Of a stretch of 64,000 bases of DNA, positions 18,609-24,813 are shown piece after piece (position 1 is the first letter of the stretch; each line of letters opens with the position of its first letter). The notes beneath the pieces were generated by a model. That model ran no database searches, was not told the DNA's origin, and saw nothing but the letters and a program-made list of their open reading frames with translations. This stretch comes from a virus. The stretch is from the IMG/VR virus record IMGVR_UViG_3300026078_000024, positions 1 through 64,000 of that record. One strand, written 5' to 3'. Made by a program: the position numbers and the translations under genes.

Positions 18609-18745
18609 TACCCCCGGCCGGATTCGAACCGGCGCGGTCACGGCGGAATGCCGAGACGATCCCGGCTGCCGTGCCATGGGAGGGGCCTGGCGTTCCTCTC
18701 CCGTCCCGTTGTTAGGCGGCGCTCTGACCACTGAGCTACGGGGGC
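18609..18745 (-). ncRNA. 137-nt tRNA-shaped RNA: canonical acceptor, D and T arms, with an ~86-nt structured domain replacing the anticodon/variable arms
   Basis: GCCCCCG TA GCTC AGTGGTCA GAGC G [86 nt] GCCGG TTCGAAT CCGGC CGGGGGT A. Confidence 0.75.
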
Positions 18746-22017: not shown

Positions 22018-22263
22018 TCATGATCCGGCCCCCAGGGAGAACCGGGGCGTGTACGTCGCCTTCGCGGAGTTGTACCCGCGTTCCCATCCGTCGTTCCATT
22101 CGGCGCTCTCGACCACCCGGAGCAGCTTGATCGCGTCCTCGTAGGACTCACCCGCGTCGTGCAGGACCGAGATGATGAAGTCCCGGGCGGCCTCCCGGTC
22201 CTCCTTGGACGGCGCCTCTGCCGCGCGGTAGTTCTTGATCGCTTGCATTGCCTTGGCGTTCAT
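22018..22263 (-). CDS. Hypothetical protein
   Basis: Preceded by the repeated start cassette CACAGGAGCCGATCATG. Confidence 0.65.
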   Translation of the reverse strand: MNAKAMQAIKNYRAAEAPSKEDREAARDFIISVLHDAGESYEDAIKLLRVVESAEWNDGWERGYNSAKATYTPRFSLGAGS

Positions 22264-22283
22264 GATCGGCTCCTGTGCCCGTC

Positions 22284-22502
22284 TCAGATGATGATTCCGG
22301 CGTTCGCGAAGAACCGGGCCCGGTCGAAACCGGCCGGGTTGTCGTCCTCGAACGCGTCGGCGAGCTTGACGGCGATGTCCCGGATCGTTTCGAGCGACGC
22401 GTGGACCTCGTTCTCCGTCCACGTCTCGCGGTTCGAATCGATCTTCTCGATCTCGTCCGCGAGGACGTCGGCCGTGGCGGTGTATGCCTTGACTGATCGC
22501 AT
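22284..22502 (-). CDS. Hypothetical protein
   Basis: ...LADAFEDDNPAGFDRARFFANAG motif; operon packing. Confidence 0.65.
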   Translation of the reverse strand: MRSVKAYTATADVLADEIEKIDSNRETWTENEVHASLETIRDIAVKLADAFEDDNPAGFDRARFFANAGIII

Positions 22503-22677
22503 GATCAGCTCCCGGGGTGGTACGTGACGATGATCAAGGCGACCAGAGAGATGATCGCCATGCCGAACCGGTACGCGCACTGCACGTAGTACCGGCGATC
22601 ACTGATGTGCTGCCGCCGGGCCTTGCGCCCGGCGGCCTTGCGGGTCTTGGTCAAGGTGGTCATGACGCGTGGTCCAC

Positions 22678-22857
22678 TCACGTGAGGTTGAAGCGCTTGA
22701 CGCTGGTGAGTTGCTGGCGCTCCGAGAAGGTCAACTCTGATTCGCGCTGGCCGGAACCCTCGGCCTGGACGACGGCCTCGACGGTCTGTCCGTCGACCCC
22801 GAGACGGGTGAGGGTGTCGGTGAGGCGTCGACTGAAGTCGTTGCTGCGAGTGCTCAT
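22678..22857 (-). CDS. Hypothetical protein
   Basis: Preceded by the start cassette. Confidence 0.6.
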   Translation of the reverse strand: MSTRSNDFSRRLTDTLTRLGVDGQTVEAVVQAEGSGQRESELTFSERQQLTSVKRFNLT

Positions 22858-23004
22858 GATCGGCTCCTGTGTCCGTATCTGCGGGTGGGTGATGATGCCA
22901 GCCACGCGGCCCGACTCGAACAGGGGCCGTACTCAAACGTGGACCAGATCAATGGCAACGCGCGCATCCTCGAACGGGCCGGAACCCGTTCTCCGCTGTA
23001 GCGC

Positions 23005-23077
23005 GTGGCTGGCATCATCAGGACCGGGGCACCACCCCCGGCCGACGGCAGGCCCTCCCGGGCGGCCGTTTCGCCAT
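23005..23077 (-). ncRNA. Type II hammerhead ribozyme, copy A (predicted GUC cleavage between 23044 and 23043)
   Basis: UGGC GAAA CGGC..GCCG UC^ GGCCGGGG GUGGUG CCCCGGUC CUGAUGA U GCCA GCCAC: full core, three stems, loop I GUGGU pairs with the 3' tail GCCAC. Confidence 0.85.
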
Positions 23078-23079
23078 GA

Positions 23080-23283
23080 TCATTCGTGCCACACCATGTA
23101 GATCAACATGGGCCGCTCCGCCCCGGGGCGGAACACGCTCGCCATGTAAAACGCCCGGTCCCACAGGCGGCGGACGACGTATCCGCCTCCTTCGGAACCG
23201 TCGATGATGCCGTCCGCAAGCGCCGGGTCGATCTCGCGGATCTCGCCGGTCCGGACCACGGTTTCCGTCACGGTTGCGTTCAT
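23080..23283 (-). CDS. Small hypothetical protein between the two hammerheads
   Basis: RBS GGAGGAG plus GATCATG; stop immediately precedes hammerhead A. Confidence 0.7.
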   Translation of the reverse strand: MNATVTETVVRTGEIREIDPALADGIIDGSEGGGYVVRRLWDRAFYMASVFRPGAERPMLIYMVWHE

Positions 23284-23342
23284 GATCGTCTCCTCCACTG
23301 ATGATCCGTGGCCACGGCCCCGAAGGGCCGGACCAAAGATGA

Positions 23343-23579
23343 TCAGAAGTTCTTGCTCACCAGGCGCCACGAGTTGCGGTGGATCGCCAGGGCCGCCGTG
23401 TTCTCCGCGAACTGCCGGTCGTCCGTCTCGACCTTGATCAGTTCGTCGGTCTTACCGGCGACCAGGTGGAAGATCTCGACGGTGAAGATCTCTGCGGTGA
23501 GGGTGCCGTGCTCGTCGATGTCCTCGCGGCCCTGTTCGGTGAGACCCTCGTAGTACAGGTTCAGGTCGTAGTCGTTCAT
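23343..23579 (-). CDS. Small acidic hypothetical protein between the two hammerheads
   Basis: Start cassette directly follows hammerhead B. Confidence 0.7.
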   Translation of the reverse strand: MNDYDLNLYYEGLTEQGREDIDEHGTLTAEIFTVEIFHLVAGKTDELIKVETDDRQFAENTAALAIHRNSWRLVSKNF

Positions 23580-23606
23580 GATCGGCTCCTGTGTCCGTAT
23601 CGGTTC

Positions 23607-23677
23607 GGCTGGCATCATCAGGACCGGGGCACCACCCCCGGTCGACGGCAGGCCCTCCCGGGCGGCCGTTTCGCCGT
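23607..23677 (-). ncRNA. Type II hammerhead ribozyme, copy B (predicted GUC cleavage between 23644 and 23643)
   Basis: CGGC GAAA CGGC..GCCG UC^ GACCGGGG GUGGUG CCCCGGUC CUGAUGA U GCC; two substitutions relative to copy A. Confidence 0.8.
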
Positions 23678-23679
23678 GA

Positions 23680-23877
23680 TCATTCGTCGTAGTCGCCCGT
23701 CATGGCCCCGACCCACTCGGTGGCGTCCATGCCGTCCAGGGTGGGGAACCCGTCATCGTTCACGAAGTCGAGCGTCGTGAGCTGGATACCGGCGTCGGCC
23801 GCCTTGGTGATCAATGCGTACACCTTGGCCTGGAACTCGGGGGTTTCGTTCTCGATGTGAAACACGGTGTGCGCCAT
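23680..23877 (-). CDS. Small hypothetical protein
   Basis: RBS GAAAGG, GATCATG; stop immediately precedes hammerhead B. Confidence 0.65.
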   Translation of the reverse strand: MAHTVFHIENETPEFQAKVYALITKAADAGIQLTTLDFVNDDGFPTLDGMDATEWVGAMTGDYDE

Positions 23878-24041
23878 GATCGTTCACCTTTCCGTTTTGG
23901 TCTTGGACGGTCCGTACGATGCGGCCAGAACGATCAGTTCGGACGCGATCTCGTCTGTCGGTGCCATGTTGCACGCGGCTTCGCATGTGAAGACCGTGAT
24001 CGTGAACTGGCGGATCTCGTTGATCTCTTCCGGGGTGCGCA

Positions 24042-24230
24042 TCAGACCGCCTTGAATTCGATCATGTCTGCGTTCCGGTGGGTCTCACGGATCTTGCGGA
24101 GTAGCGCATCGGCCGCCCTCTGCTCGGACGACGCTCGGACCGTGGCGACCCTGCGCCGGACATCTCCGGGGGCCCATTCGGGGTCGGGGCGGTAGTCGAG
24201 GGTTACGCGGTAGTTGAACTGGATTCGCAT
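24042..24230 (-). CDS. First ORF of the early operon, hypothetical
   Basis: Preceded by the start cassette. Confidence 0.6.
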   Translation of the reverse strand: MRIQFNYRVTLDYRPDPEWAPGDVRRRVATVRASSEQRAADALLRKIRETHRNADMIEFKAV

Positions 24231-24317
24231 GATCGGCTCCTGTGTCCGTCTCGTGCTCGTGCATGGGGAGATCCACCGGCTTCCCCGTTCGAGATACGGT
24301 CGCGGCCGGTGGATCAG

Positions 24318-24778
24318 TAGCAACGGCGGGGATCGAACCCGCTAGACGCCTCTCGGTCCCCGGTTCCCCCGGGTGTTTATCGTCTCGCTGCCATGTGCGC
24401 CGGGTGTTTAACCGCAGACCCGGCGAAAGCGTTTGGTCCGTCAGTCACGCGATCAACGCGTGCATGTGATGACGGAATGTCGGTCCGATCCGCCGTTTGG
24501 GTTTCCGCCTCCGCCATCTGCCTTGATCTCTCAGCGCCGGTATGGCGGTGGTTTGTGATCAAGACCGTCCGGGTTCGATTCGGTCCGTCCCATTGGATCT
24601 TCCGGGATTTTTGGGGGCCCCCGGTGGGGCCGTCATCCCCGCATTGCAGCTCTTCGATCAGTCTCCCGACGATCAAGGCGGTGGGTTGTCTGCCTTCTTA
24701 GAAGATCACCCGCCGTGGTGGCCGGTGCGACGTCCGGTTTAAGATCACCGGGGCCGATCTTCCGTCGTTCTTTGGTAC
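24318..24778 (-). ncRNA. Putative ~460-nt structured RNA with a pseudoknot and a 3' tRNA-like module (24318-24392)
   Basis: Begins just after a consensus promoter; no RBS-supported ORF; ends GGCAGCG [..] GCGGG TTCGATC CCCGC CGTTGCT A. Confidence 0.65.
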
Positions 24779-24784
24779 ATCTCA

Positions 24785-24813
24785 AACATACGGCCGCTGG
24801 GGGCCCATGTCAA
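24785..24813 (-). promoter_or_regulatory. Strong sigma70/HrdB-type promoter
   Basis: TTGACA-N17-TATGTT, with a relatively AT-rich stretch upstream. Confidence 0.85.

Follow-up and report, generated by a model that had tools for sequence, protein, structure and literature searches.

An exact antisense to the catalytic strand of a phage hammerhead ribozyme, a candidate kinetic gate or post-cleavage lock

A type II hammerhead ribozyme in the DNA of an uncultured actinobacterial phage, referred to here as HH A, is followed in its own presumed transcript by an exact 19-nt antisense to its catalytic strand. Folding models predict that the two would pair once both have been transcribed, at the expense of the active ribozyme, and we propose, with a probability of roughly 45%, that the antisense is a kinetic gate or a post-cleavage lock on HH A. 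The DNA analyzed, which we call the window, is a stretch of 64,000 nt with a G+C content of 65.5% and represents the first 64 kb of a 92.9-kb (92,877-base) IMG/VR virus record.

Among cultured phages, DNA similarity to the window was found in actinobacteriophages only. Streptomyces phages share just the ribozyme itself with it at the DNA level, and the similarity to Gordonia, Mycobacterium, and Nocardia phages (~70% identity) is limited to a helicase fragment. From ~24800 to 22000 on the minus strand lies a series of tightly packed small genes behind a consensus-like promoter, and we infer that transcription runs in this direction (Table 1). No relatives of X2 or X3 below 97% identity were found among 5.8 billion clustered proteins, and X1 and X3 had zero relatives in IMG/VR. 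A start module of 22 to 25 nt, ACGGACACAGGAGCCGATCATG, is present in four copies in the operon (at 24249, 23598, 22876, and 22282), before unrelated small genes; an exact match to it was not found in IMG/VR. The virus record contains no TROVE or RtcB gene, and a link to Y RNA/Ro or to RtcB was rejected on that ground.

Table 1. Coordinates of the ribozymes, the repeat arms, and the neighboring features in the window
Feature	Position	Strand	Evidence or remark
Predicted sigma-70-like promoter, TTGACA-17-TATGTT	24785..24813	-	Consensus scan, 10/12 matches; would drive the operon with both ribozymes
HH B, twin of HH A without the insert	23603..23676	-	Rfam RF02276, 52.6 bits (gathering score 37); alignment
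Gene X2, 67 aa, orphan	23080..23283	-	Stop codon 3 nt before HH A
HH A, type II hammerhead	23003..23076	-	Rfam RF02276, 48.7 bits (gathering score 37)
Arm 1, the ribozyme's own 3' strand, UGAUGAUGCCAGCCACGCG	23002..23020	-	Repeat finder, sequence, fold
93-nt spacer	22909..23001	-	Folds; hairpins given in the text
Arm 2, perfect antisense of arm 1	22890..22908	-	Ends ~113 nt after the ribozyme is completed at 23003
Start module, GATACGGACACAGGAGCCGATCATG (ribosome-binding site and ATG)	22855..22879	-	In front of gene X3; common to 4 genes
Gene X3, 59 aa, orphan	22678..22857	-	Translation; first gene downstream of HH A

Some tRNA-like features lie elsewhere in the window. On the minus strand at 18609-18745 is a 137-nt tRNA-like gene, which matches the Rfam tRNA model with 41 bits and a 57-nt unaligned insert and which ARAGORN, with introns allowed and the default threshold, calls as tRNA-Val(aac), its anticodon loop enlarged by an insertion of 64 nt. 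Another feature, at 24326-24342 (minus strand), is a perfect T-arm-like hairpin, GCGGG-TTCGATC-CCCGC, within the ~460-nt noncoding leader that extends from the promoter (24813-24785) to the first start module; ARAGORN at default settings called no tRNA there.

Both HH A and HH B match RF02276 over the full model (positions 1 to 66). The sequence of HH A displays CUGAUGA (with an additional U), GAAA, GUC, an 8-bp stem I hairpin, and a stem III hairpin, whereas stem II (UGGC/GCCA) is built from the two ends of the ribozyme and is open. By inspection, UGGU in loop I can pair with the GCCA of the tail, a pseudoknot that agrees with the type II consensus (PMC3088659). To judge from its Rfam score and core features, HH A is a genuine type II hammerhead, with cleavage predicted after GUC, between 23044 and 23043. 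On the plus strand, Rfam reported no hammerhead at the gathering threshold or at an E value of ≤10, the essential core C3 would be a G, and GAAAC is absent upstream, which together rule out an opposite-polarity hammerhead arm of the viroid type.

HH A and HH B each begin 3 nt past the stop codon of the upstream gene. They differ in what follows: the distance from ribozyme to start codon is 149 nt for HH A and 27 nt for HH B. In an alignment of the two with their counterparts from a close relative, HH B runs from AGCC via five bases straight into the start module, whereas HH A has ~122 extra bases between AGCC and the start module, ending in the antisense. The original prediction had described HH B as lacking the insert, and the alignment agrees, placing the extra bases in HH A only.

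The repeat itself was confirmed by a repeat finder and by the sequence, in line with the original prediction of an exact antisense to the HH A core strand. Positions 22890-22908 are the exact reverse complement of 23002-23020 (19 nt, 100% complementarity, 93 nt apart). When the whole record was scanned for perfect arms separated by loops of ≤200 nt, this was the longest perfect inverted repeat in the 92,877 bases, followed by repeats of 15 and 14 nt. The maximal inverted repeats of 40 dinucleotide shuffles were 12 to 16 nt long, and 19 nt was reached in none of the 40. The same record-wide scan found no comparable helix at other intergenic sites of the operon. Read from 23020 to 23002, arm 1 consists of core residues U4 to A9, the bulged extra U, the stem II strand GCCA, the pseudoknot tail GCCA, and CGCG, and 14 nt of it are ribozyme sequence held in common with the insert-free HH B. 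Contig Ga0157374_10015144, assembled independently of the window, contains the repeat as well, which excludes an assembly artifact.

The 93-nt spacer contains both of the elements described for it originally, a GAACGGG/CCCGUUC hairpin at 22991-22972 and a T-loop-like hairpin, CCCCUGUUCGAGUCGGGC, at 22926-22909, as well as a second hairpin around GCCAUUGAUC (22956-22947). As a whole, the interior is less stable than its shuffles (z = +1.55). No Rfam family was identified in the insert, the best match being a 27-nt fragment of 2dG-II on the wrong strand (18 bits versus a cutoff of 60). There was no second copy of the insert in the 92.9-kb genome, and no donor sequence for it was found in the genome or in databases. 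Neither a promoter-like site, on either strand of the segment, nor a terminator-like site at 22880-23020 was present.

Several other identities for the insert were considered and rejected. An intrinsic terminator would call for a G+C-rich hairpin with a U run, which is lacking at 22880-23020, where the helix is followed by CCCACCCGCA. A miniature inverted-repeat transposable element is contradicted by the single copy, the lack of a flanking duplication, and the lack of copies in virus and genome collections. With regard to coding potential, there was no credible coding signal or protein homolog in any frame. A minus-strand frame of 54 codons, from a ribozyme-internal AUG to an ATGA overlap with X3, has G+C fractions by codon position of 0.47/0.73/0.69, compared with ~0.6/0.4/0.87 in the real neighboring genes. 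A plus-strand frame of 38 codons (22885-23001) has no phage homolog, and its only match among 1.84 billion proteins, to a 23-residue repeat of a 3,714-aa repeat protein, was judged spurious. The spacer is not a recognizable remnant of an inverted cassette, its similarity to the start module being nonsignificant (P = 0.14). A second antisense, in which GCCAUUGAUC would pair with the 5' strand of stem II and the stop codon, was likewise dismissed, with a duplex energy of P = 0.07 versus shuffles.

We modeled the consequences of the repeat for folding of the minus-strand RNA. In the minimum-energy fold of 23090-22850 (241 nt), stems I and III are kept and a helix of 19 to 20 bp replaces stem II and the core; the predicted capture of the core, the stem II strand, and the pseudoknot tail in a 19-bp duplex is thus reproduced in silico. 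To represent the active fold, the three hammerhead stems were enforced with the core and the pseudoknot tail unpaired, and its cost was taken relative to the unconstrained minimum. For HH A, this cost was 0.7 to 7 kcal/mol for any transcript end before the antisense and 13 to 20 kcal/mol once the antisense was included, compared with 2 to 7 kcal/mol for HH B across the same lengths. The antisense therefore adds ~10 to 13 kcal/mol to the cost of the active fold, in HH A only and after its transcription, these being equilibrium values from a model that contains no pseudoknot, tertiary contacts, ribosomes, or kinetics. The background of a few kcal/mol is about what a 4-bp pseudoknot could repay, but the extra 10 to 13 kcal/mol would not be repaid in this way. 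The ribosome-binding site, ~20 nt past the helix, is predicted to be about as accessible as that of HH B, and no clear difference in its accessibility was seen between the A and B cleavage products.

The original prediction had included a kinetic switch, or a lock that prevents re-ligation; the A-only energy penalty fits either. The mechanism that we find most economical has the antisense compete with the active ribozyme fold. In our proposal, HH A, a type II hammerhead of a working type, occupies the leader of gene X3 in a minus-strand early operon, and a lineage-specific insertion of ~122 nt separates it from the start module. The hammerhead would fold and cut after GUC (23044/23043) during a further ~113 nt of transcription, an interval of a few seconds at ordinary bacterial elongation rates. 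In the active fold, the CGCG past the pseudoknot tail is unpaired and could serve as a toehold where the antisense nucleates; from there, the antisense would open the pseudoknot and stem II (4 bp each), invade the core, and form the 19-bp helix. RNAs still uncut at that point would be frozen uncut; in RNAs already cut, the leftover half of the ribozyme would be locked and the cut made irreversible. After the lock, the X3 message would begin, at its 5' end, with a structure of high stability. Overall, the arrangement would act like a timer that fixes which share of the mRNA is processed and which is not, and it would leave the 5' leader locked, with no ligand sensing.

Some observations argue against a gate or lock. 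HH B, the hammerheads of Streptomyces phages Alvy and Celia, and 64 hammerheads from IMG/VR all do without a distal antisense. Arms that are still perfect point to a recent duplication more than to a structure maintained over a long time, and the interior is not unusually structured. Selection cannot be shown, because the element is known from a single lineage sampled at an identity of at least 97%.

The IMG/VR hammerheads came from pattern scans for the type II class, in which 64 distinct examples with core CTGANGANGCCAGCC were recovered. A distal antisense was present in none of them: in the interval from 14 to 320 nt downstream, the longest complement to a hammerhead's own 3' strand was 10 nt. 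The hammerheads of Alvy and Celia lead directly into the ribosome-binding site, and for 61 other phage hammerheads of the subfamily the median distance from ribozyme to start codon is 27 nt. Searches of virus and species-representative genome collections for the same two arms with a spacer of 85 to 115 nt returned only chance matches in coding DNA. Within the sequences covered, then, the distal antisense is unique to this lineage.

The relative that shares the element, contig Ga0157374_10015144 (L132), is ~98% identical and has kept both ribozymes and the insert. Over the 131-nt element it differs from the window by two changes, matching the 2.1% divergence of the flanks; a third change lies just downstream. 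One is a U-to-C change in a predicted loop. The other is an A-to-G change in the antisense arm, by which a U-A pair of the minus-strand RNA becomes U-G; on the plus strand, a C-A mismatch would result. This second change is uninformative on selection: by chance, about half of all transitions in a perfect helix leave the pairing intact, and the change says only that the repeat was inherited and is no artifact. Conservation in homologs, which had been suggested as a check, can thus be affirmed insofar as the repeat is kept in L132; with one relative at 98% identity, the comparison is too close to speak to selection. HH B of L132 (1797-1811) has CUGACGA in place of CUGAUGA, a U7-to-C change at the sole freely variable position of the core, which fits a ribozyme under purifying selection.

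Comparison of the window with L132 also revealed turnover of cassettes at the start modules, with one gene missing, one extra, and the N terminus of X1 replaced. The gene at 24228-24042 is absent from L132, which carries an extra cassette of ~220 nt. Gain and loss of genes coincide exactly with start-module sites (window, 22255-24253; L132, 1376-1391 and 2686-2905), a pattern that fits start modules as recombination anchors. The N-terminal half of X1 (23343-23579 in the window) corresponds to a shorter, unrelated stretch in L132 (1841-2012). As a result of this replacement, the hammerheads are spaced 540 nt apart in L132 versus 600 nt in the window, so that a unit of exactly 600 nt is not conserved. 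In the X1-X2 intergenic region (23298-23307, minus strand) is GGAUCAUCAG, whose final 8 nt, AUCAUCAG, form the complement of CUGAUGAU in the core of either hammerhead; its counterpart in L132 is GGGUCAUCAG, and the complementarity may be due to chance.

The main rival explanation is that the element is a nonadaptive scar, in which illegitimate recombination or a template switch in a cassette-shuffling region copied 19 nt of the ribozyme in inverted orientation along with ~100 nt of junk, and which persists because the partial disabling of one of two ribozymes is cheap. We consider this doubtful, although much of the evidence is compatible with it. Comparison with the 98%-identical L132 marks the region as a hot spot where cassettes come and go, the perfect arms suggest a young event, and the interior is without a detectable fold, family, or homolog. 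The arrangement is also unique among the 64 related hammerheads, and the divergence of the element, two changes in 131 nt, equals that of its flanks. Against a scar stand the lack of a donor or second copy in the genome and databases and a resemblance between the spacer and an inverted start module that is not significant. In addition, the arm ends match the functional strand rather closely, from U4 to just past the pseudoknot tail.

It is also conceivable, though we think it improbable, that sequestering of the core strand by a 3' element is programmed throughout the hammerhead subfamily, as a timer before cleavage and a lock against re-ligation, with HH A as its long-range extreme. Of the two ribozymes in the twin unit, HH A is the downstream one, and with its leftover half locked, the ends of the excised two-gene RNA would be free to re-form a hammerhead, so that this RNA could be ligated into a circle.

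Among the surveyed loci (L003 to L187) with core CUGANGANGCCAGCC, many have a word complementary to the core right after AGCC (for example, L010, L020, L087, L164, L177, and L185). The tail words in question are GCAUC, GCAUCA, and CAUCAG, or CGUCAG when position 7 is C. A perfect tail/core helix of ≥5 bp, within the first 14 nt of the tail, was found in 21 of 64 hammerheads (33%), compared with 4.2% of control windows. Weighting by clusters of similar stems gave 19% versus 4.3% (9 of 39 clusters).

Some of the variation among tails and cores appears compensatory, with U7 accompanied by CAUCAG and C7 by CGUCAG, and with A at position 9a accompanied by GCUUC. C at 9a with GCAUC contradicts this pattern, the covariation is weak overall (P = 0.07 when cores were permuted among tails), and 31 of 64 tails would pair better with a variant core. 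In a subset, the tail word can alternatively pair with GAUGC or AUGCG 3 to 4 nt upstream of GGCGAAAC, which hints at a two-state tail; such upstream pairing showed no overall enrichment (17% versus 10%). These comparisons are suggestive, though no proof, of core-strand capture by a 3' element that recurs in the subfamily, and as such they count in favor of the gate or lock proposed for HH A. Alternatively, the tail word may be a conserved word with another role. No mention of core capture by a 3' tail word was found in the paper of Perreault et al. 2011 (PMC3088659).

An element of double-stranded RNA that acts independently of ribozyme control, either as a site for host RNase III or as a stabilizer of the X3 5' end, has in our estimate only a small chance of being the explanation. 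The predicted helix of 19 to 20 bp is perfect and spans about two turns, and the ribosome-binding site downstream of it is left about as accessible as in HH B. Early phage operons, such as those of T7 and lambda, employ RNase III hairpins between cistrons. A helix of 19 bp is at the lower limit for the enzyme. A second cutter would moreover be redundant with the ribozyme cut 40 nt upstream, and such a helix occurs at no other intergenic site of the operon.

We judge it very unlikely that the element is a tRNA-like or small-RNA module, in which a long acceptor-like stem is stacked on a T arm, followed by C-CCA, and is released by the hammerhead for RNase P, RNase Z, or a CCA-adding enzyme. The idea draws on a 17-nt sequence, CCTGTTCGAGTCGGGCC, that recurs unchanged as the T arm of real phage tRNAs at loci L121, L126, and L128, on the C and CCA (22889-22886) directly after the helix, and on the other tRNA-like oddities of this phage. 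The same 17-mer, however, occurs by chance in eight coding regions, its T stem has a C-C mismatch, and a 19-bp acceptor does not fit the 12-bp ruler of tRNA. ARAGORN at default settings and the Rfam tRNA model (E value of ≤10) found nothing in the insert. Lowering the ARAGORN threshold to 70% produced a weak "tRNA-Ser" whose D and anticodon arms are poor and which needs a 32-nt intron; that setting also gives spurious calls in controls. The originally suggested tRNA-like product was accordingly not borne out by either program.

Still less probable is a site that works at the level of DNA, with the 19-bp arms bound by a recombinase or a regulator, as in a tiny invertible segment. Perfect inverted repeats around a short segment are the signature of invertible DNA. 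A 93-bp segment is nonetheless very short for inversion, contains no promoter-like site on either strand, and has the same orientation in both assemblies. Furthermore, ribozyme sequence that HH B also has accounts in full for one arm, and the single substitution in L132 keeps the RNA pairing and breaks the symmetry of the DNA. Least likely of all is the ligand-controlled ribozyme switch of the original prediction, with an aptamer in the 93-nt loop. A multihairpin junction inside the switching helix is in its favor. Against it, the interior is less stable than shuffled sequence and matches no riboswitch family, and the sole relative, at 98% identity, is too close for a pocket to be delimited by conservation.

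How the many hammerheads of phage genomes function and are controlled has been an open question since they came to light in 2011. HH A, with its antisense at a fixed distance, offers a natural test case, and HH B in the same transcript offers a built-in control; the pair could reveal whether phages time or lock ribozyme cleavage by cotranscriptional folding. Should the gate-or-lock proposal hold, it would amount to a simple, protein-free means of setting how much mRNA is processed relative to how much is not, and the design of synthetic leaders would gain a principle from it. Should it fail, the element would show that recombination in a cassette region can disable a ribozyme.

Components of this arrangement resemble engineered ribozyme devices, in which an attenuator or antisense strand in cis, complementary to the core, switches the ribozyme off, and insulators of the RiboJ type, in which a hammerhead and a hairpin in the 5' leader standardize the 5' end of the downstream message. 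HH A has a core-complementary strand in cis and, like RiboJ, places a ribozyme and a helix in a leader. Engineered attenuator devices are synthetic and usually depend on an effector to release the attenuator, whereas HH A is natural, with no effector evident.

Among natural ribozymes, type II hammerheads are known from phages and prophages, where they flank one gene or a short block of genes (Perreault et al. 2011, PMC3088659; RF02276). HH A is like these in its class, in its pseudoknot between loop I and the 3' tail, and in the presence of several copies per phage transcript before ribosome-binding sites. It is unlike them in the ~122 nt that separate ribozyme and ribosome-binding site and end in a 19-nt antisense, an arrangement seen in 0 of 64 relatives. 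Regulated cleavage was only speculated on in that work, and a cis antisense was not described (PMC3088659). Hammerheads of Avsunviroidae viroids, such as ELVd, are active during transcription, after which a more stable alternative pairing hides them (PMC1636495), and an alternative structure of the plant satellite RNA sBYDV is cited there from Miller and Silver 1991. In viroids, the pairing partner is a hammerhead of opposite polarity and serves the replication of circular RNA, whereas HH A has no plus-strand hammerhead, belongs to a DNA genome, and lies in an RNA that would be an mRNA leader. What HH A would have in common with the viroid and satellite hammerheads is a catalytic strand paired to its complement in the most stable predicted fold, and hence transient activity, and by this analogy they are the closest natural precedent for antisense competition of the kind proposed here.
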